In this document: piece by piece, positions 5,925 through 15,303 of the stretch
How positions within the stretch are numbered: the stretch's first letter is position 1
Layout of the letters: each line of letters opens with the position of its first letter
Source: Klebsiella pneumoniae
GTDB taxonomy: Bacteria > Myxococcota_A > UBA796 > SXON01
Assembly: GCA_945862325.1 (NCBI GenBank)
Contig: CAMAXZ010000018.1
Location: 15,131-79,130, forward strand
DNA length: 64,000 nt
Reading direction: 5' to 3'
The notes under the pieces: model-generated
Databases searched by the model: none
What the model was told of the DNA's origin: nothing
What the model saw: only the letters and a program-made list of their open reading frames with translations
Translations under genes and position numbers: made by a program

Positions 5925-7523
5925 TCAAGTGATCTCTACTGGTGACTCTGTAAACACCCACAGCTCCACATGAATACCGCATCGGACGAGGTGTTGGTGC
6001 CATGCGGCCTGCTCGTCACGGACGGCGTCGGTAGGGCCCTTCACCTCGGCGAGGAGCGCGTCGGGAGGGAGGTTCGCGGGGAGCGCGCACGGGATGCGAC
6101 CCACCGGCCCCGACGCGATGAAAAGGTCGGGGAGACCTCGGGCTGCGGCCCAGCCCTCGTACGCCAGGCGACGGAGGATCGCCGACGCGATCGGCCCCGG
6201 CACGCGGCTCGCCCAGGCGCGCGCCGCCTCCTGCCACACGAGGCCCGCGAGCGGCTCCCCTTGCCACGTCGACACGTACCGATCGAGCCCGTCCTCGAGC
6301 TCGGCGAGGCGGCGCTCGACCTCCGGGCGACGGCGCGCGGCGAACCCGGGGGTCCCGACGTCGAGCGGGCCCGCGCGGCGCGGACCCGGGAGCATGCCGG
6401 GCACCGGGAGCCAGTACAGGTCGCGGAAGACCAGCGCGTAGAGCGATGTCCAAAGCGCGTTTTCGGCGTGCACCGCCGCGCGCCCCGCCCGCTCCGCGAG
6501 GGCGCCGGCCACGAGCTCGATCGTCCCCTCGCGCCCGGCGGCCCGCCACAACGGCCGCCCGTTCGCCGTGCCGATCCGCGGCGCCCGGAAGTGCCGCGAC
6601 GGGACGACGAGGGTCTCGGTCGGTGGCAGGCTCCTGCGCGCGGCGCGAGCCGCGGCGCGCCCCGCGCGCGCGAGCCCGACCGCCTCCGCTGGATCGGCGC
6701 TCCCGGCGCGCGCGATCTCGTAGGCTTCCCCCACGCGCCCCTCCCGGAGCAGCGCACGGACCCACTCCGCGCGGACGCGTGCCCCGCCCCGCACGAGGGC
6801 GCCCAGCGTGTCGGCGTCCGGCTCGTCGGCGAGCACGGCGTCGACCGCGCGCCTCCACGGGGACAGGCCGGCGTCGCGCGGCCCCGCCATCGCGACCGCC
6901 ACCGCTTCCCCCGGCTCCCAATCGCCCTCCCGAGCGCGCTCCCAGACCCGGCAGTCGCGGCGCGTGGCGAAGATGCCGGTCCCCCCCGTCGGCGCGTACG
7001 CGGCCCAACGCAGCGCGCCGACCCGCTCCGCGGCGAGAGACGACCGATCGAGCCCGCTGCGCTGAAAGGCGAACACCTCCGCGCGGCGGAGCAGGGCGAG
7101 GTGTCGCACGGCGACCACCGGCTCGTCGACCCAACGCGCTCCCCGCAGGCGCTGCTCGAGGTCGGCGCGGGAGCCGCCCACGGGCGCGCCGACACGGCGG
7201 CACGCCGCCTTCAGCGCCGCCACGTCGAAGGCCGGAAGGCACCACGCGTCGGGCACCTGGTCGTGGACCAGACCCGCCGCGGCCAGGACGGCCGCCGCCG
7301 TGGGCACGTCCAGCGCATACCGGAGCGACGCGAGGCGGAACACGCGGCCCTCGCGCAGGCTCAACCGGGCGTAGAGCTCCGCGGGTTCGTCCGCGAGGGC
7401 GAGGATCGTCGAGAGCACGACATGCTCGCCGGCGCTGAACAAGTGACCTTCCAGCTCGATCGCGCGGGCGACGACCTCGCGCAGGTCGGCGGCGGGGAAC
7501 GGGGACGCCGGGACAGTGCGCAC
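5925..7523 (-). CDS. FAN1-like structure-specific nuclease (SAP-like + helical + VRR-NUC domains)
   Basis: GTG at 7523 preceded by GAGGAGG. SAP-like segment LKAACRRVGAPVGGSRADLEQRL. C-terminal VRR-NUC/PD-(D/E)xK motif GLPDLFI...AEVKGPTDAVRDEQAAWHQHL. Confidence 0.7.
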   Translation of the reverse strand: MRTVPASPFPAADLREVVARAIELEGHLFSAGEHVVLSTILALADEPAELYARLSLREGRVFRLASLRYALDVPTAAAVLAAAGLVHDQVPDAWCLPAFDVAALKAACRRVGAPVGGSRADLEQRLRGARWVDEPVVAVRHLALLRRAEVFAFQRSGLDRSSLAAERVGALRWAAYAPTGGTGIFATRRDCRVWERAREGDWEPGEAVAVAMAGPRDAGLSPWRRAVDAVLADEPDADTLGALVRGGARVRAEWVRALLREGRVGEAYEIARAGSADPAEAVGLARAGRAAARAARRSLPPTETLVVPSRHFRAPRIGTANGRPLWRAAGREGTIELVAGALAERAGRAAVHAENALWTSLYALVFRDLYWLPVPGMLPGPRRAGPLDVGTPGFAARRRPEVERRLAELEDGLDRYVSTWQGEPLAGLVWQEAARAWASRVPGPIASAILRRLAYEGWAAARGLPDLFIASGPVGRIPCALPANLPPDALLAEVKGPTDAVRDEQAAWHQHLVRCGIHVELWVFTESPVEIT

Positions 7524-7607
7524 CCCCTCCTCTACCCCGCGGCGAGATGCTCCCCGGCGCGGGCCGTTCGCGGCGTAGCGCGCGACCGGCCTTGTTATGG
7601 ACCGGGC

Positions 7608-9038
7608 ATGAGTACCCGCCGCACCAAGATCGTCGCCACGCTCGGCCCCGCCACACGCGAGCCGGAACGCCTCGTCGCGTTGTTGAGCGCCGGCGTCGAC
7701 GTGGTCCGCATCAACTGCTCGCACGCCACGGCGGACGGCATCCGCGAGTCCGTGGCGCGGGTTCGTCGAGCGGCGACCGGGCTCAACCGCGCCGTCGGCA
7801 TCCTGCTCGATCTGCAAGGCCCGAAGATCCGCACCGGCAAGGTGCCGACGCCGCTCGTGCTGCAGCGGGGCGACGCGCTCACCGTCGTGATGGACGAAGA
7901 CTACGCGGCGCACGGCCACTTCGTCGGCACGACCTACACGGGCATGGCGGCCGACGTGCGCGTGGGCGACCTCGTGCTCTTCGCCGACGGCGCGCTGTCC
8001 GGCCACGTCGAGTCCGTGCACACCGAAAAAGCGCCGTCAGAAGTGGTGATCCGAATCGAGGACGGCGGCGAGCTCGGGTCCCACAAGGGCATCAACCTGC
8101 CCGGGGTCCCGGTCAGCGCCCCGTGCCTGACCGAGAAGGACATCGAGGACCTCGAGGTCGGCGTGAAGGCGGGCGTCGACTTCGTCGCGCTGTCGTTCGT
8201 GCGCGAAGCCCGCGACGTGCTCGAGCTGCGCCGCCACCTCCAGCGCCTGGACGTGCCCGATCTCCCCATCGTCGCGAAGATCGAAAAGCCGCAGGGCGTC
8301 GCGAACATCCAGGAGATCCTCCCCGTCGTCGAGGGGATCATGGTCGCGCGCGGCGATCTCGGCGTCGAGGTCAACCTGGAGCGCATCCCGGTCCTGCAGA
8401 AGGAGCTGATCGCCGCCGCGAACAAGGCCGGCGTCCTCGTGATCACCGCCACGCAGATGCTCGACAGCATGGAGCGAAACCCGCGGCCGACCCGCGCCGA
8501 GACCACCGACGTCGCCAACGCCATCCTCGACGGCACCGACGCGATCATGCTGTCTGGCGAGACGGCGACCGGCCGCTGGCCGATCCGGGCGGTCGAGACG
8601 ATGGATCGCATCGCCCGCGAGGTCGAGTCGAGCCGGTGGATGCGGCCGCCGATGGAGGACGTCTCCGTGCTGGCCGGCCCGCAGCTCACCGTGGTGCGCT
8701 CCGCCTGCTACGCCGTGCGCGAGATCCAACGGCCGCTGGTGGTCTTCACGTGGTCCGGGCACACCGCGCTGCTCGCCTCGAAGTCGCGGCCGCAGGGGCC
8801 GATCTTCGCCTTGACGCCAAACCAGACCACCTTCGACCGCCTCGCGCTCGCGTGGGGCGTCACGCCCGTTCGCGCCCCGAGCGTGGCGAGCACGGACGAG
8901 CTGATCCATCTCGGCGAGCAGATCCTGTTGCAGGAAGGCCACGTCCGGCGCGGCGAGGAGGTGGTCGTGTTGGCAGGAAACACCCCGATGAAGGGCGCGA
9001 CGAACACCATGAAGGTGTACACGGTCGGCCGTCTGTGA
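7608..9038 (+). CDS. pyk: Pyruvate kinase
   Basis: MSTRRTKIVATLGPAT...VRINCSH...DLQGPKIR...MVARGDLGVE...ATQMLDSM...TRAE..DVANA..DG.DA.MLSGETA.G. Confidence 0.95.
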   Translation: MSTRRTKIVATLGPATREPERLVALLSAGVDVVRINCSHATADGIRESVARVRRAATGLNRAVGILLDLQGPKIRTGKVPTPLVLQRGDALTVVMDEDYAAHGHFVGTTYTGMAADVRVGDLVLFADGALSGHVESVHTEKAPSEVVIRIEDGGELGSHKGINLPGVPVSAPCLTEKDIEDLEVGVKAGVDFVALSFVREARDVLELRRHLQRLDVPDLPIVAKIEKPQGVANIQEILPVVEGIMVARGDLGVEVNLERIPVLQKELIAAANKAGVLVITATQMLDSMERNPRPTRAETTDVANAILDGTDAIMLSGETATGRWPIRAVETMDRIAREVESSRWMRPPMEDVSVLAGPQLTVVRSACYAVREIQRPLVVFTWSGHTALLASKSRPQGPIFALTPNQTTFDRLALAWGVTPVRAPSVASTDELIHLGEQILLQEGHVRRGEEVVVLAGNTPMKGATNTMKVYTVGRL

Positions 9039-9087: not shown

Positions 9088-9573
9088 ATGCCCGTCGACC
9101 CCTCCGCCCTCGCGCGCGCGCCGCTCTTCGCCGACATGACCGCCGACGAACGCGCGGGGCTCGCGTTGTTCTTCACGCCGCGACGGGCGGACGTGGGCGA
9201 GGTCCTGCTGTGGGAGGGCCGGCCGCACGACAGCCTGTTCGTGGTCGAGTCGGGCAGCGTGGTGGTGTCGAAGCAGATCCGGGGCGAGACCGAGGCGGTC
9301 CTCGCGCACCTCAGCACCGGCGCCCACTTCGGAGAGGTCGACCTCATCGACAGCCAATCGGCGTCGGCGAGCGTCACCTGCGAGACGAGCTGTCGGCTCG
9401 CCGTGCTCGAGCAGGAGCAGCTCCGCGGGCTGCTCGCCAACGACGAGCACCTGTTCTCACGGTTCGCCTGGGCCCTCCTGCGCGACCTCGCCGGCAAGCT
9501 CCGCCGCACCAACCAGAAGCTTCAAGAGAGCATCGTGTGGGGCCTCGACGCGACCGCGTCCGACGTCCGCTGA
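9088..9573 (+). CDS. Stand-alone cyclic-nucleotide-binding-domain protein (atypical phosphate-binding cassette)
   Basis: 161 aa. PLFADMTADE...GEVLLWEGRPHDSLFVVESGSV...HFGEVDLID matches the CAP/CNB beta-roll. The conserved R-[ST]-A position reads S-A-S. Confidence 0.75.
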   Translation: MPVDPSALARAPLFADMTADERAGLALFFTPRRADVGEVLLWEGRPHDSLFVVESGSVVVSKQIRGETEAVLAHLSTGAHFGEVDLIDSQSASASVTCETSCRLAVLEQEQLRGLLANDEHLFSRFAWALLRDLAGKLRRTNQKLQESIVWGLDATASDVR

Positions 9574-9577
9574 CGCA

Positions 9578-10660
9578 TCACGTCGCCCGGGCCCACACGA
9601 GCCCTGCCGCCCCGACGACGAGAGCGAGCGCGGAGCACCCGGCGCCCGCGAGCCAGATGCGGTGCGGCCGCTCCAGCGTTCCGGCGCGGAGGGCCCGGAG
9701 CGAGGCCGCGGGCAGCTCCGGGACGCACAGGAGGTCCGCGAGGGCGTGCCCCCCGTCGCTCTGCGGAAAGAACGGCCACGCCGTGAGCGCGGCCTGGACG
9801 AAGAACACGTCGGCGAGCGTCGCGAGCGACCAGCCGAGCGACCCGCCGACCGCGCGCGACGTGATCGCCACGGCGCCCCCGCAGAGGACGGACGCGAACG
9901 GACCCGCCATCGCGACGACCGCGTGCTGGGCGCGGCTGGCCATGAACATGTCCGAGGTGTCGACGAACACCTTGCCGAGCCCGACGCCGACGCCGTTCAC
10001 CCGCCGCCCGTGCCAGGCGCAGGCGACGCCGTGGGCGAGCTCGTGCGGGATGGTCGCCATCGGCCACGCCCCGAGGAAGCCGAGCGCCCACACCCAGTAC
10101 GGAAACGACGCCGACGGTCGGGGGAGCATCAGGTGCGCGAGCAGTCCGCCGAACGCCACCACCCCCCACACCGGGAGCGAGCCCGCGGGGGCGAGCCGAC
10201 TCAGGAACCGGGCGGCCCGTTGGAACGCCGCGTCCACGTCGGTCCAACGGTGCTCCCAACCGACGACGCGCGCGACCGGGGTCTGAACCACCGAGGCGCT
10301 CGCATCGACGATCAAGCCCGCCTTCCGCGCCGCGTTGATGAACCGGGCCACCTTCGAGAGGTCGAGCGAGCCGGAGCGCACGAAGTAGGCCGTGGCGATC
10401 TCCTGCATGTTCCGGCGCCCGTCCATCATCAACCAGAGGGCGTGCTCGGTGTCGTCGACCTGCAGGTAGGTGTTGCGGCCCCGGACGTTCAGCACGAACC
10501 CGCCCTCTTCACGGGCGGCGATCTCGACGGTCACGTCCGCCGGCGGTGACGGACGAAACCGCAAGAGGGCCGCGCCAGGGTCGATGTGCTTGATCTCGAA
10601 GCCGGCTTCGGTGCCCGGGCGACGGACCATGAGCTCGAGCTTCTGGCGCGGAGGAGACAC
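9578..10660 (-). CDS. Membrane M50-family (site-2-protease-like) zinc metalloprotease with PqqD/RRE-like N-terminal domain
   Basis: HExxH inside a TM segment (IPHELAHGVA) and a second motif WPFFPQSDGGH (compare NxxPxxPLDGG). The N-terminal ALWLMMDGRRNMQEIATAYF...VARFINAARKAGLIVD resembles PqqD-type peptide-binding winged helices. Start is GTG 10660 or ATG 10630. Confidence 0.7.
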   Translation of the reverse strand: MSPPRQKLELMVRRPGTEAGFEIKHIDPGAALLRFRPSPPADVTVEIAAREEGGFVLNVRGRNTYLQVDDTEHALWLMMDGRRNMQEIATAYFVRSGSLDLSKVARFINAARKAGLIVDASASVVQTPVARVVGWEHRWTDVDAAFQRAARFLSRLAPAGSLPVWGVVAFGGLLAHLMLPRPSASFPYWVWALGFLGAWPMATIPHELAHGVACAWHGRRVNGVGVGLGKVFVDTSDMFMASRAQHAVVAMAGPFASVLCGGAVAITSRAVGGSLGWSLATLADVFFVQAALTAWPFFPQSDGGHALADLLCVPELPAASLRALRAGTLERPHRIWLAGAGCSALALVVGAAGLVWARAT

Positions 10661-10669
10661 GCGGGAAGG

Positions 10670-10900
10670 CTACGCCGCGGCGTCGCGCGCGAGGAAGGAC
10701 TCGTCGAACGCCTTGTTGAAATTGGAGACACGCTCGGGATTGGCGACCACGTCCTCGATCATCGACAGGCTGGCGGCGTCGAGCTCGATGCTCTCGGCGG
10801 CGAGGGTGCCGCGTACGTCCGCGACCAGGCGGGCGCGGAAGTCCGCGTCGATGAGGGCACGTCCGACGATGGCCTGGAGCTGGGCATTGGTCTGGGGCAT
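10670..10900 (-). CDS. NHLP-clan (Os1348/Franean1_4349-like) small protein, candidate precursor peptide
   Basis: 76 aa. ATG 10900 preceded by GGAGG. QLQAIVGRALIDADFRARLVADVRGTLAAESIELDAASL matches the helical leader-like pattern of nitrile-hydratase-leader-type peptides. It lies 9 nt upstream of the M50 gene. Confidence 0.6.
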   Translation of the reverse strand: MPQTNAQLQAIVGRALIDADFRARLVADVRGTLAAESIELDAASLSMIEDVVANPERVSNFNKAFDESFLARDAAA

Positions 10901-10939: not shown

Positions 10940-11857
10940 CTACGCCGTCGCGAGCGCGGCGGCGAGGCGCAACGCCACGAGCCGCGCGCGCGCCTCGCGC
11001 AGGTACGTCATGCGCCGCTCGGTCCACGCGTCGAAGCCGGCCAGGCCGACCTCGGCGGCGAGCGGGAGGCACGCGCGATGGTCGACCTCCGCCGCCGCCA
11101 GCGCGTCGTCGAGCCACGGGTCGGCCTGGAGGGCGGCGCGCACGCCCGCGTCGTGCAGCGGCGGATCGACCGAGGCGCGCACGCGCGCGAGGAGGAAGGT
11201 CTCGGCGCCGCTCCGAAGGTCCCGGTCGTGCCCGAACACGTCGTTCGCGCGCCCGTAGGCCACGCCGAGCCGATGCACGAGCGGTCGGACGGCCGCGGCG
11301 CGATCCCACCGCCCGGCGCGCGCGAGGGCCGCGAGCAGCGGGATCTCCGCGAGCGCGACCTTCTCGGCATGCGCGACGAAGTCGGCCTCCGCGTAGGCGC
11401 TCCGGGCGGCGATGTGCGCGCGTTCGGCCTCCGTCCACGCGGCGTACCGGAGCCACGCGTCGCGCGCGGCGGCGCCGAACTCTGGATGCGGAACCTGCGC
11501 GAACCCGGCGAAGGCGTCCCAACGGTAGGCGTCCGCGAGCAGCAGGAGCGACGCGTCCCCTCGCCCGCTCGGCTCGTCCACCAGATTGTCGACGATGCGC
11601 ACGGCGAAGTACGCGAGGGCCGTCGCTTCGAGGTCGCCGAGCAGCAGCTCCGCGTCGAGCCCCGCGTCGTCGGCGGCCATGAGCGGCAGCGCGAGCAGCG
11701 GCGGCGACGCCGGCAACGAGAAGTACGCCCGATCCGCGGCGCCGATGCCCGCGAAGTGGCGCTCCGCCGAGGCGCGCAGCGGCGCCGGATAGGCCGACAC
11801 GCGCGCTTCGAGGCGCGCCCACACCCGCGCGATCGGACCGGCCCACGGCGAGTACAT
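10940..11857 (-). CDS. Isoprenoid-synthase-fold (polyprenyl synthetase-like) protein with degenerate Asp-rich motifs
   Basis: 305 aa, all-helical. AYFAVRIVDNLVDEPSGRG aligns with the FARM region (first Asp-rich motif, xxDDxxD...RRG), and LGVAYGRANDVFGHDRD with the SARM region (second Asp-rich motif). The ATG overlaps the upstream stop (TGATG). Confidence 0.5.
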   Translation of the reverse strand: MYSPWAGPIARVWARLEARVSAYPAPLRASAERHFAGIGAADRAYFSLPASPPLLALPLMAADDAGLDAELLLGDLEATALAYFAVRIVDNLVDEPSGRGDASLLLLADAYRWDAFAGFAQVPHPEFGAAARDAWLRYAAWTEAERAHIAARSAYAEADFVAHAEKVALAEIPLLAALARAGRWDRAAAVRPLVHRLGVAYGRANDVFGHDRDLRSGAETFLLARVRASVDPPLHDAGVRAALQADPWLDDALAAAEVDHRACLPLAAEVGLAGFDAWTERRMTYLREARARLVALRLAAALATA

Positions 11858-13230
11858 CAGGCCGACGGGCGCTCGACGATCTCGGGGGCGGTGAGGGTCT
11901 CGGACACCCGCGTCTCCAGGCTGAGCCCCCACAGCACCGGCTCTCCCCGCTTGCCGCGGACCTTCACCGGTGGCAAGCGTCGGAATCCGGCGACGTGCCG
12001 GACGTGCTCGTGCACCGAGTCGCTCACGATCACGGTGCACGCGAGGTCCTTCGTGAGCTCTTGGAGCCGCGCCGCGAAGTTCACGGTGTCGCCGATGACG
12101 GTGAACTCCATCCGCTGCTCGGATCCGATGTTCCCCGCGACCACTTCGCCGTGCGCGATTCCGACGCCGATCCGGAGCTCGGCGGCGTCCGCGCCCAACA
12201 GGCCCTCGTTGAGCGATCGCACGCGGTCGACGATCTCGATGGCGGTGCGAACGGCGCGCTCCGGCGCGTCCGGCATCTCGCGCGGCACCCCGTAGACGGC
12301 CATCAACCCGTCCCCGAGAAACTTGTCGAGGGTGCCGCCGTTCCGGAACACGACCTCCACGAACTCCGTGAAGCACACATTGAGGAACTCGACGACCCGC
12401 TCCGGCGCAGAACGCTCAGCAAACGCCGTGAAGTTGCGGATGTCGAGGAACAGCACCGTCGCCGTGCGCCGCACGCCGCCGAGGCCCATCGCCGCCGGGT
12501 TCTGCAGCACGTAGTCGAGGACCTCCGCCGACATGTAGCGACGGAACCGGTCGGACTCGGACTGCAGGCGCTGCGCCCGTAGGGTCTCGCGCGCGCTCGC
12601 GACCAGGAGGCGGCGGTTGAGCTCGGCGAACCAGGCCATCACCGCGCCGAAGACCAACAAGAAGAATACGCCGGTGCCCTGCTCGGCGAGGTTCACCGCC
12701 TTCACGCCGTAGACCACCTCGTCGGTCGTCTCGGCGATCCCCGCGGACACGAGCCCGACCAGGAGGGCGAGGCGCGCGAACGCGGCGCAGCCCGCGGCCC
12801 AGAGCGACACGGACGAGCTGTACTGCAGCCCCGTGAGGCCGATCCAGATCAGGTACAGCATCGGGTAAATCGGAGCCAGCAACGCCTCGTATGCCCCGGA
12901 TGGCCCGGCCACGGTCGCGGCGGCGGCGCCCGTGACGACGGCCATGTCCACGGCGACGTTCACGTACCGAAGCGCCGCCGGGTGGCGCCCGGACGAGTAC
13001 ACCGCGAGCGCCGCCCCGGACCACACGGCGTAGCCCGCGCCGATCCCCAGGGTGGTCCACATGATCTCCGGTGGATTGCTCGACCACTGCGGCAGCAGCG
13101 CGAGGATGCCCGCGGCGCTGAGGCCGAGCCGGATCCGGGTGACCGTGACCTCGCCGCGCGCCACCTCGGGGGCGAGGATGCGCTCGACCTCGGGCGGCAG
13201 GGCCTCGGCGCGGAAGTACGAGGCGCTCAT
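11857..13230 (-). CDS. Membrane-bound class III adenylate/guanylate cyclase
   Basis: About 6 TM helices followed by a catalytic domain: TVLFLDIRNFTAFAE...GGTLDKFLGDGLMAVYG...GIAHGEVVAGNIGS..R.EFTVIGDTVNFAARL. Confidence 0.9.
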   Translation of the reverse strand: MSASYFRAEALPPEVERILAPEVARGEVTVTRIRLGLSAAGILALLPQWSSNPPEIMWTTLGIGAGYAVWSGAALAVYSSGRHPAALRYVNVAVDMAVVTGAAAATVAGPSGAYEALLAPIYPMLYLIWIGLTGLQYSSSVSLWAAGCAAFARLALLVGLVSAGIAETTDEVVYGVKAVNLAEQGTGVFFLLVFGAVMAWFAELNRRLLVASARETLRAQRLQSESDRFRRYMSAEVLDYVLQNPAAMGLGGVRRTATVLFLDIRNFTAFAERSAPERVVEFLNVCFTEFVEVVFRNGGTLDKFLGDGLMAVYGVPREMPDAPERAVRTAIEIVDRVRSLNEGLLGADAAELRIGVGIAHGEVVAGNIGSEQRMEFTVIGDTVNFAARLQELTKDLACTVIVSDSVHEHVRHVAGFRRLPPVKVRGKRGEPVLWGLSLETRVSETLTAPEIVERPSA

Positions 13231-14150
13231 GCGGCGCTCACCGCGCGCAGGGCGAGCAGCGCGTTGGCGGTGGCGTAGAGATCGCCGGTGTAGAACACCG
13301 CGTCGGGACAGTCTCCCAGCGGAAACCTTCCATCTTCGACCTGGAACTCCCACAGCCGCGCCGCGGCCGCGGCGACCGCCGGGTCGTCGGCGGGCTGGCC
13401 GGCCCGGAGGCGGGCCAACAAGGCCCACGCGGTCGGGAGCACGCTGCTCGGGCGGTGGGGTCCGAAGCCGTGCCCGCCGTCGGCGTGGGTGGTCGCGTCC
13501 AGCCACGCCCGGAGGGGCGCCGGTTCGACAACGGCGGCGCACACGTGCGCCGCGTAGAGCGGGGTGCCGTAGAAGGCGTCGTGGGCGTGCCACCCGCCGT
13601 CCGGAGCCCGCACCCGCGCGACGAACGCGCGCCCGGCGACGGCGAGGGGCTCGTCCGGCGCGAGCAGCGGCAGGACCCACCCGGTCACGGACGGTCCGGT
13701 CGCGTAGTGCGCGTGGCCACCGGGCGCCTCGAGGAGCGCCGCCGCCCACGTGCCGCCCGGAAGGGCATGGCGACGCGCGAGCGCCGCCAGCGCAGGCGCG
13801 CGCTCCGGATCGACGAGGGCCCAGGCGGCGGTCGTCTCCCAGCAGAGCGCGGGCCGCGCGCGCCAGTGCGGGAGCCCGCCGGCCCCGGCGAGCTCGCGGA
13901 GCGCCGCCGTCGAGGCCGCGGGCACCGGCGCGCCCCAGGCGCGAAGCGCGCGCAGCGTCGTGATCGTGTGCCACACGTCGGAGCCGGCGCCGAGCTTGTA
14001 CAGCTCGCGGCGCGGAGCTCCGGCAGGGTCCGCCAGCACCGCGGCGAGGTCGTCCACCGGGTCCCGCGCGAAACCGTCCGACGCGATCGTGCGGGCCAGC
14101 CACGCCACGGCGCGGCCTGCTGGAGGGTCGAGGTTGGTCGCCTGGGCCAT
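13227..14150 (-). CDS. Prenyltransferase/squalene-cyclase-repeat (alpha-alpha toroid) protein
   Basis: Repeated aromatic/Gly motifs (GGLPHW, PGGTWAA, PDGGWHAHDAFYG, ADGGHGFG, EDGRFP). Start is ATG 14150, 10 nt after the purK stop; ATG 14183 is an alternative. The stop overlaps the cyclase ATG (ATGA). Confidence 0.6.
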   Translation of the reverse strand: MAQATNLDPPAGRAVAWLARTIASDGFARDPVDDLAAVLADPAGAPRRELYKLGAGSDVWHTITTLRALRAWGAPVPAASTAALRELAGAGGLPHWRARPALCWETTAAWALVDPERAPALAALARRHALPGGTWAAALLEAPGGHAHYATGPSVTGWVLPLLAPDEPLAVAGRAFVARVRAPDGGWHAHDAFYGTPLYAAHVCAAVVEPAPLRAWLDATTHADGGHGFGPHRPSSVLPTAWALLARLRAGQPADDPAVAAAAARLWEFQVEDGRFPLGDCPDAVFYTGDLYATANALLALRAVSAA

Positions 14151-14160
14151 CCCGCCGATA

Positions 14161-15303
14161 CTACCACCCGAACCGAAGCGCATCCGCAGCGGCGCCTGCG
14201 GCGGCCTCCGCGAGGTCCGCCGACGTCGCGAGCGCGGTGACGTGACCCATCTTGCGGCGCGGGCGCACCGTGCGCTTCCCGTACAGGTGCACGTGCACGT
14301 CGCCGCCGTCCACCGCCTCCACGCCGGCGAGCGCGCCGGACGCGCGGACCCCGGCCGGACCGAGGAGGTTCACCATCGCCGCGGGGGCGCGGAGCGCGGG
14401 CGCCACCACCGGCAACCCGACGACCGCCCGCACGTGCTGCGCGAACTGCGAGATCGTGCACGCCTCGAGCGTGAGGTGCCCGCTGTTGTGCACGCGCGGC
14501 GCGAGCTCGTTCACGACCACTTCGTCGCCACGCACGAAGCACTCCACCGTCAACGTGCCGACGAGGTTCACCGCCTCGGCCAGCACCCTCGCGATCTGCA
14601 CCGCCCGGGCCTGCGCCGTGGCGGAGGCGCGCGCCGGACATCGGGTCACCCGGAGGATGCCGTCCCCGTGGTGGTTCTCGAACACCGGGAACACCTCGGC
14701 GCGACCGGACACGTCGCGCGCGACCACGACGGAGATCTCGAGGTCGAACGCGACCTCCGCCTCGAGCAACCACCGACCGCCCGGCGCGACCACGGCCTCG
14801 GCCGCGCGACGCCCCTCGGCGTCGGCCACGCGCCACTGCCCGCCGCCGTCGTAGCCCCCGCGCGCCGACTTGAGCCGGCAGACCCCGCCGAGGCGCGCGA
14901 GCCCGGCCGCGAGCGACGGCCCGTCCCGGACCTCCACGCCGGACGCGGTCGCGATCCCGAGGCGGTGGAGGAACGCGTGCTCGACGAGCCGGTCCTGGGT
15001 GATCTCGAGCAGCTCCGCGTCGGGACGACACGGACGACGGGCCTGCAGCGCGCGCACCGCGCCCGCGGGCACATTCTCGAACTCGTAGGTGAGCACGTCG
15101 CACAGACCCGCGAGCGCGTCGAGCGCGTCGGGGTCCTCGTACGGTGCACGAATCGTGCGATCCGCGACCGCCGCGGCAGGCGCGTCCTCCTCCGGCGCGC
15201 ACACGACCACGCCGTACCCGAGCTGGCGCGCCGCGACCGCGATCATCCGCCCGAGCTGGCCACCGCCGAGCACGCCGATCGTGCCGTCGCCCGGCCGGAT
15301 CAT
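14161..15303 (-). CDS. purK: N5-carboxyaminoimidazole ribonucleotide synthase
   Basis: [12 protein letters not shown]...TYEFENV...ATP-grasp...[12 protein letters not shown]...KMGH. The ATG overlaps the purE stop (ATGA). Confidence 0.92.

Follow-up and report, generated by a model that had tools for sequence, protein, structure and literature searches.

What is the function of a 76-amino-acid (aa) protein whose gene stands directly upstream of an intramembrane protease with a peptide-binding type of domain? This question is raised by a 64,000-nucleotide (nt) stretch of contig CAMAXZ010000018.1 (GenBank assembly GCA_945862325.1; GTDB lineage Myxococcota_A), the whole of which is called the window here. 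A first-pass annotation, made from the letters alone, had paired a small protein of the nitrile hydratase leader peptide (NHLP) clan, here D, with an M50 protease, here E, carrying a PqqD-like recognition element (RRE) for peptides that are made on the ribosome and modified after translation (RiPPs). The D-E pair has stood, but this two-gene view overlooked the wider operon, that is, an isoprenyl-diphosphate-synthase-fold protein (C), a membrane adenylate cyclase (B), a protein with squalene-cyclase-like repeats (A) and a protein with a cyclic-nucleotide-monophosphate (cNMP)-binding domain (F). The answer favoured here, tentatively and with a little less than even confidence, is that the operon serves, as a ComQ/PalQ-like cassette, to modify and process a peptide and is coupled to cyclic-nucleotide signalling.

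As listed in Table 1, A, B, C, D and E form a five-gene operon on the minus strand, with D and E at its end and F convergent with E. The stop codon of A and the start codon of B overlap in ATGA, the stop of B and the start of C share 1 nt in TGATG, two overlaps by which B is translationally coupled to A and to C, 39 nt separate C from D, and E starts 9 nt past the stop codon of D, at a position backed by the N-termini of 29 homologues; the stop codons of E and F are 4 nt apart. Both open reading frames (ORFs) of the first-pass annotation, D and E, proved real at their minus-strand coordinates. D starts with ATG, a GGAGG box lies 4 nt 5′ of it, and its GC content at codon positions 1/2/3 is 0.70/0.43/0.91 in a window of 72% GC, so that the strong Shine–Dalgarno sequence and the typical third-position GC (GC3) ascribed to it were both borne out. 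GC3 is 0.90-0.94 in the neighbouring genes as against 0.67-0.77 in the alternative-frame ORFs overlapping D, and the possibility that D is a spurious ORF was rejected by codon-position GC together with conservation across lineages. A promoter and terminator scan of the locus gave 0 promoters, and terminator-like sites at background level.

Table 1. Positions of the genes and motifs in the window, copies of F in related loci, and gene orders among the relatives.
Feature	Position or loci	Strand	Basis
A: 318-aa protein, DGGW-type repeats, weak squalene-cyclase QW-repeat similarity	13227..14183	(-)	
B: polytopic membrane class III adenylate cyclase, 457 aa	11857..13230	(-)	PF00211, 85 bits
C: all-alpha trans-isoprenyl-diphosphate-synthase-fold protein, 305 aa	10940..11857	(-)	
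C: motif like the first Asp-rich motif (FARM), D90-N-L-V-D94-E95	11573..11590	(-)	D90, D94, E95 invariant
C: pseudo-second Asp-rich motif (pseudo-SARM), N205-D206-V-F-G209-H-D-R-D213	11219..11245	(-)	N205, D206, G209, R212, D213 invariant
D: Os1348-family NHLP-clan small protein, 76 aa	10670..10900	(-)	NF038399, homologues, codon-position GC
E: RRE-M50 (site-2-type) intramembrane metalloprotease, 360 aa, GTG start	9578..10660	(-)	
E: winged-helix (PqqD/RRE-like) beta3-alpha3 domain, residues ~44-118	10307..10531	(-)	model, Foldseek
E: active-site HELAH (H206, E207, H210)	10031..10045	(-)	alignment
E: PFFPQSDG motif, residues 296-303	9752..9775	(-)	alignment
F: cNMP-binding-domain protein, 161 aa, convergent with E (copy beside E in the window)	9088..9573	(+)	62.5 bits
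F copy beside E, L001	1883-2377		
F copy beside E, L005	2142-2639		
F copy beside E, L007	3579-4109		
Pyruvate kinase	7548-9038	(+)	
Order C-D-E	P0011 contig, L001, L002/L003, L031		
Order B-C-D-E	L016-L021, L023, L032, L034, L035, L037		
D-E on short contigs	L006, L036		
A-B-C-D′ without protease	L009-L012, L022, L024, L026		
F, E, D, B in other arrangement	L029, L039		
F adjoining E	window, L001, L005, L007/L008, L016, L029, L039		

First of all, the company that these genes keep was followed through the contexts of E, C and D relatives in assemblies, GTDB genomes and JGI metagenomes, each of which was searched by tblastn for the six window proteins; genome scans started from the C alignment and from a tighter alignment of D, and a genome-contig scan with the single E sequence gave no match. 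The B-C-D(-E) synteny is found in more than 20 loci from metagenome-assembled genomes (MAGs) and metagenomes at 33-59% identity, the values for the single proteins relative to the window being 33-48% for E, 35-56% for C, 37-50% for B, 42-59% for D and 30-64% for F. D stands directly upstream of E in the large majority of nearer relatives with enough flank (E identity ~31-48%), and D is adjacent to C in the large majority of sampled C-family loci, i.e., D is linked to C and B at least as tightly as to E. The expectation that the D gene would be conserved beside orthologous M50 genes thus holds in the nearer relatives and fails in the distant loci L005 and L007/L008, whose proteases have F but no adjacent peptide; therefore not every member of the family has the D-E pair. 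No other gene neighbours E-family proteases as widely as F. A accompanies B and C, at 38-42% identity, in the lineages that lack the protease, where it sometimes lies after D′ (the small ORF of the A-B-C-D′ loci) instead of before B. The records of the relatives are labelled as Deltaproteobacteria or Myxococcota MAGs, and the DNA matches of the window sequence come from lake and freshwater metagenomes only.

Two variations on the small gene were observed in the same set. In L013 (at ~10000-10110; also in L014 and L015), A-B-C is followed by an NHLP-like remnant (KLQEIIGRA...), which seems to be frameshifted and truncated, and the sister lineage L009-L012 retains an intact 82-aa D′ ORF. In L017 (6912-8429, minus strand) and L020 (4724-5935, minus strand), an opposite-strand gene for about 400-500 aa is inserted between C and D, and its product has, by eye, a GDSL/SGNH-hydrolase-like C-terminus.

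D belongs to the NHLP clan, as had been supposed, although only one model was passed, and barely: NCBIfam NF038399 ('Os1348 family NHLP clan protein') matches residues 7-68 with 41.1 bits (E 1.4e-10), the curated cutoff for the whole-protein score being 40 bits. The same model gives 49.6 bits for the D relative of L019, 61.5 for L029, 40.4 for L024 and 28.1 for L009. D stays below the cutoff of Pfam Frankia_peptide (PF14407; 37.6 vs 48 bits), of which precomputed matches are present on some relatives, and below that of the classical NHLP leader model TIGR03793 (12.5 vs 50.9 bits). Moreover, D aligns with an NHLP leader (8tb1, E 2e-5) and with Os1348 (6lk7, E 0.01) in the Protein Data Bank (PDB), and Frankia_peptide, Nif11, NHase-alpha and ComX are placed by ECOD in one LigA-like three-helix domain group (PMC12353581). 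Cys, Trp and Tyr are all absent from the sequence of D, as is a GG/GA motif, and the earlier caveat that its core is not that of a classical RiPP still applies. Beyond the NF038399 match there remains a tail of 8 residues, FLARDAAA. In most relatives the tail has the consensus F-L-(A/S/G)-R-(G/A)-(D/E)-Y-(L/V/A)-x, and its Tyr at -3 takes the position of the prenylated Trp in several ComX variants and in StheX. By tblastn, no further copies of D are found in the window.

Several known peptide systems were compared with the locus and set aside. A classical NHLP/GG-exporter system was rejected on the 12.5 bits of TIGR03793, the lack of GG/GA and the lack of an ABC transporter among the annotated adjacent ORFs, and a graspetide reading was rejected on the sub-threshold PF14407 score, the sole ATP-grasp gene nearby being purK beside purE. 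The Os1348 locus of Pseudomonas sp. Os17 (6lk7) is alike in that a small precursor-like protein, of a dimer-forming family, is encoded beside a metalloprotease; that cluster consists of a GNAT acetyltransferase, a soluble HEXXH/MA-clan peptidase and a SagB-type dehydrogenase (PMC7726476). An Os1348-type cluster was likewise rejected, none of these three enzymes being found among the annotated neighbours.

The partner that links the locus to peptide prenylation is C. Its AlphaFold model is all-alpha (pLDDT 88.1, pTM 0.88), and the best PDB folds are trans-isoprenyl-diphosphate synthases (IPPS), namely octaprenyl- and hexaprenyl-diphosphate (PP) synthases with TM 0.70-0.73; the indole prenyltransferase Ord1 follows with TM 0.64 and with 18-20% identity, the highest among the fold matches. 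The invariance of the two motifs of C in Table 1 was judged over nine homologues of 39-56% identity. The FARM of the window protein is DNxxD rather than DDxxD, and DDVVDE replaces DNLVDE in the relatives P0161/P0162. For the second motif, 'YG..NDV.G' of C was aligned by profile search to the SARM 'YQIIDDILD' of hexaprenyl-PP synthase 3aqb_B; since ND of C aligns with DD of the SARM, C has Asn in place of the first Asp of that motif. In the StheQ/StheX preprint (bioRxiv 10.64898/2026.08.29.745113), the ComQ family is described as keeping the FARM and having a pseudo-SARM NDxxx, with the gene of a small peptide directly beside that of the enzyme; set against this family description, C has both motifs. 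C is regarded as a ComQ/PalQ-like candidate peptide prenyltransferase.

The IPPS fold of C could also be explained by a small-molecule terpenoid operon, in which C would be a prenyl-diphosphate or terpene synthase, A its class-II-cyclase-like partner, and D and E mere passengers. The weak squalene-cyclase repeat matches of A (TIGR01787, the squalene/oxidosqualene-cyclase model, E 2.8e-4) and the existence of distant C homologues fused to a geranylgeranyl reductase domain would suit such a pathway. However, the second Asp-rich motif, which is needed for chain elongation, is replaced in C by ND..G, the hallmark of peptide/indole prenyltransferases; moreover, A is absent from most C-D-E loci, and D comes after C in nearly every lineage, so that this explanation is considered very unlikely.

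In Thermodesulfobacteriota MAGs, distant C-family domains are fused C-terminally to geranylgeranyl-reductase-like FAD proteins (L028, 457-3986; L027, 4759-6930), and next after the fusion of L028 come a radical SAM/SPASM gene and an ORF of 95 aa that ends in ...GAVFSGVC; L030 (5242-7686) combines a C-like and a radical SAM domain in one protein. These fusions give indirect support for isoprenoid and peptide-maturase chemistry in the C family. A divergent 270-aa gene of L005 has C-like motifs by eye (QDDLLDE; DLLDAEKDLRTG) and no tblastn match.

E is an M50/site-2 protease (S2P) by its HExxH motif, its DG motif and its S2P core fold. In the family alignment of 30 homologues, H206 and H210 are invariant and E207 is nearly so; P296, D302 and D234 are also invariant, and F297 and G303 nearly invariant. 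By analogy with the NxxPxxxxDG motif of S2Ps, D302 is presumed to be the third zinc ligand. The window protein itself is below the cutoffs of Pfam Peptidase_M50 (PF02163; 18.8 vs 27.2 bits) and Pfam PqqD (15.8 bits at residues 56-117, vs 23.4), and a PDB sequence search with E returned no match; within the family, PF02163 matches 24 of the 30 members, and PqqD matches 8 of them at E<=0.01, the best at 2.8e-6. The AlphaFold model from the family alignment (pLDDT 88.3) has strands at residues 44-49, 55-60 and 64-68 and helices at 70-78, 85-96 and 101-113, followed by a helical membrane core. By Foldseek against the PDB, the core matches the M. jannaschii S2P (3b4r) and SpoIVFB (8vjl) with probability 0.98-1.0. 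The N-domain matches RRE proteins of lasso peptides, that is, TbiB1 (5v1v/5v1u, TM 0.64-0.67), whose matched structure is a complex with its leader, and 6jx3 (TM 0.69), these TM values being target-normalised with a root-mean-square deviation of 2.9-3.5 Å over 84-87 columns; the RRE maturases CteB, TglI, TigE and McbB were matched as well. As modelled, the N-domain has the RRE topology of a three-stranded sheet followed by three helices, and the RRE-like domain that the first-pass annotation had seen on the protease is thereby supported.

A word-indexed homologue search gave 7 matches for E and 3 for D. It took the exhaustive HMMER search to find the family of E, with 818 matches, of which 19 were below 1e-30; about 35 full-length representatives at 31-48% identity make up its core. 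In P0002 and P0004-P0007, the module of winged helix-turn-helix (wHTH) and M50 domains (about query residues 33-330 matched) is fused to N-terminal FHA domains, and it also occurs inside proteins of 600-1280 aa (among P0048-P0145) in many other organisms. From these matches, site-2 proteases with RRE-like domains would seem to be much commoner than the RiPP literature implies.

The view that a fusion of RRE and intramembrane protease would be unconventional did not survive, for MpaP, the leader peptidase of the daptides, which was reported in 2023, is already built in this way, with an RRE at the N-terminus of an intramembrane site-2 protease (PMC10028931); other M50 enzymes in RiPP pathways are EpeP of the epipeptides and TglG/TmoG of the pearlins (PMC10885120). 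In E as in MpaP, the HExxH/DG M50 core comes after a cytoplasmic RRE, and the gene stands beside that of the presumed substrate. The difference from daptides lies in the candidate substrate, which is here a folded NHLP-clan protein. Membership in the daptide family was rejected: the best NCBIfam match of E is daptide_HExxH (NF041824, residues 45-327), followed by YydH/LiaK, with 62 bits against a cutoff of 300, and D lacks both ELExMEAP (by eye) and the invariant C-terminal Thr.

The same comparison gives rise to another explanation, i.e., that D is a RiPP precursor without prenylation, matured by E alone or by enzymes encoded elsewhere, with A, B and C forming an unrelated isoprenoid/signalling unit. 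That a daptide protease is the best match of E, that the M50 enzymes TglG and TmoG trim C-terminal residues off scaffold peptides, and that D and E are adjacent in most close relatives would all accord with it. What it does not accommodate is the shortfall of E and D against the daptide family, the absence of any MpaB/C/D/M-type enzyme (aminotransferase, methyltransferase, alcohol dehydrogenase), radical SAM enzyme or PEARL enzyme among the annotated neighbours, and the C-D linkage, which is at least as strong as D-E and is left without a reason; this explanation is judged quite improbable.

For the favoured reading, a modification and processing cassette, the closest precedent of the operon is PalP-PalX-PalQ/ComQXPA. 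In the former, from Paenibacillus alvei, PalP is a sensor kinase, the NHLP-type precursor PalX consists of a domain of 72 aa and a core of 8 residues, and PalQ, of the isoprene-synthase superfamily, prenylates Trp, an activity that the NHLP domain enhances (PMC10853753). PalPXQ, ComQXPA of Bacillus and StheQ-StheX of Sphaerobacter share with the present locus an enzyme of all-alpha isoprenoid-synthase fold encoded beside a peptide of 55-80 aa; PalX and D share a folded NHLP/LigA-like N-domain with a short tail (72 aa plus 8 in PalX, residues 7-68 plus 8 in D); and ComQXPA and PalPXQ also contain a polytopic, sensor-type membrane protein. They differ in that this membrane partner is a histidine kinase there and a class III adenylate cyclase here, that the present locus has in addition an RRE-M50 protease of its own and a cNMP-binding-domain protein, and that the hosts here are Gram-negative Myxococcota MAGs.

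On this precedent, D would be a precursor-like protein, composed of a folded NHLP/LigA-like three-helix domain and a C-terminal tail of about 8 residues. We infer that C would bind the folded domain and modify the tail, most likely by prenyl transfer, for which the Tyr at -3, kept in most relatives, would be the best acceptor candidate. E would then capture D via the cytoplasmic RRE domain and cleave it at the membrane with the M50 core, so that the tail peptide is released and possibly exported. B may stand in for the sensor kinase ComP/PalP, and F may couple the module to cyclic-nucleotide signalling or regulate E. The analysis establishes the genes themselves, their folds, catalytic motifs and synteny; that C and E act on D, like the chemistry and the parts of B and F in signalling, is inferred. 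A more specific form of this model, a ComQXPA-like pheromone circuit of freshwater Myxococcota in which D would be lipidated by C on a residue other than Trp, in most lineages the Tyr at -3, then released by E and sensed by B, with output to E via F, is speculative and looks unlikely.

A number of observations weigh against the prenylation cassette. All characterised substrates of ComQ, PalQ and StheQ use Trp, and Trp is absent from the tail of the window D and of every relative; some tails also lack Tyr, namely FLARDAAA of the window, with Ala at -3, HRAAHAA of L006 and FADRKAAS of L029/L039, and those of D′ differ again (DFGLKVQSV and similar). As the sequences stand, these Trp-less and partly Tyr-less tails are the chief weakness of the prenylation model. 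Moreover, D is conserved end to end, as a folded protein is, unlike a leader with a variable core. For C, no Pfam or NCBIfam model is matched, and the likeness to IPPS is structural, together with one weak profile match (E 0.04). There are E-F pairs without D (L005, L007/L008) and C-D′ pairs without E, the operon has no transporter and the annotated adjacent ORFs no ABC transporter, and no RNA runs contain the locus. Finally, the signalling role given to F meets a difficulty of its own: by eye, F lacks the canonical phosphate-binding Arg, with FGEVDLIDSQSASAS in the window as against FGEMGLFDAAPRSAT in L007. The residue is absent from the F copies of the window, L001 and L005 and is kept in that of L007 (PRSAT); therefore canonical cAMP/cGMP binding by the window F is doubtful. 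The F proteins adjacent to E share the C-terminal motif KLRxTNxxxxExxxWGL(D/E)A, and B, by our reading of its sequence, carries the Lys/Asp pair typical of adenylate cyclases.

The missing Arg of F and the FHA fusions of the wHTH+M50 module keep alive a further explanation, regulated intramembrane proteolysis, in which E and F would form a regulatory module and D would be a substrate, adaptor or inhibitor whose cleavage tunes B and/or C, without any modified peptide being exported. Among the known site-2 proteases, SpoIVFB, the M. jannaschii S2P and RseP share with E the M50 fold, the catalytic motifs and an extra cytoplasmic domain for regulation or substrate binding; SpoIVFB-type S2Ps cleave soluble regulatory proteins, and the SpoIVFB:pro-sigmaK structure is among the fold matches of E. 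A nucleotide-linked partner is possible in both cases, as a CBS domain in SpoIVFB and as a separate cNMP-binding-domain protein here. Such proteolysis would be in keeping with the presence of F beside E-family proteases even where D and C are lacking (L007/L008; L005), with the many homologues in which FHA signalling domains are joined to the module, with the end-to-end conservation of D, with a window tail that has no obvious modifiable residue, and with an operon centred on a cyclase. Nevertheless, the accessory domain of E is a winged helix of RRE type, its best resemblance being to leader-binding RREs, and no sigma or anti-sigma factor is encoded nearby. Regulated proteolysis also leaves unexplained the recurrent, tight adjacency of C and D, even where E is absent, and the ComQ-type motifs of C, and the characterised members of the clan of D are RiPP precursors. 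On balance it is the strongest of the three rival explanations and still rather doubtful, the cassette of modification and processing being preferred.

Each element of this cassette, that is, the clan of D, the RRE-S2P type of peptidase, and the pair of ComQ/PalQ enzyme and adjacent peptide, has a known counterpart. In the literature searched, there is no description of their combination, of cyclase or cNMP-domain partners, of Trp-less tails or of a Myxococcota host. So far, ComQ-type peptide prenylation has been shown on Trp only, in Bacillota and one Chloroflexota species, and RRE-S2P leader peptidases have been tied to daptides; the present operon unites both elements around a Trp-less NHLP-clan peptide, with an adenylate cyclase, in uncultured Myxococcota. 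If C modifies D, the acceptor range of the enzyme fold would be wider, which would be useful for peptide lipidation, a function would be assigned to part of the uncharacterised Os1348/Frankia_peptide family, and a candidate system of cell–cell signalling would be gained in a social bacterial phylum. If the pheromone circuit were true, a Gram-negative phylum would have quorum sensing wired in a new way, together with a new chemistry of peptide prenylation. Should C leave D unmodified, the pairing of E and F would still suggest an uncharacterised class of nucleotide-domain-associated site-2 proteases.

The annotated neighbours of the cluster are purE/purK, pyruvate kinase and a FAN1-like nuclease. 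The latter (FAN1_HTH, SAP, VRR-NUC) lies at 5925-7499 on the minus strand, upstream of and divergent from the pyruvate kinase gene. As to the hosts, the contig of the L016 MAG carries a Myxococcota-type operon at 64% GC under the label 'Klebsiella pneumoniae', and L029 is labelled 'Enterobacterales'; both are probably mislabels.

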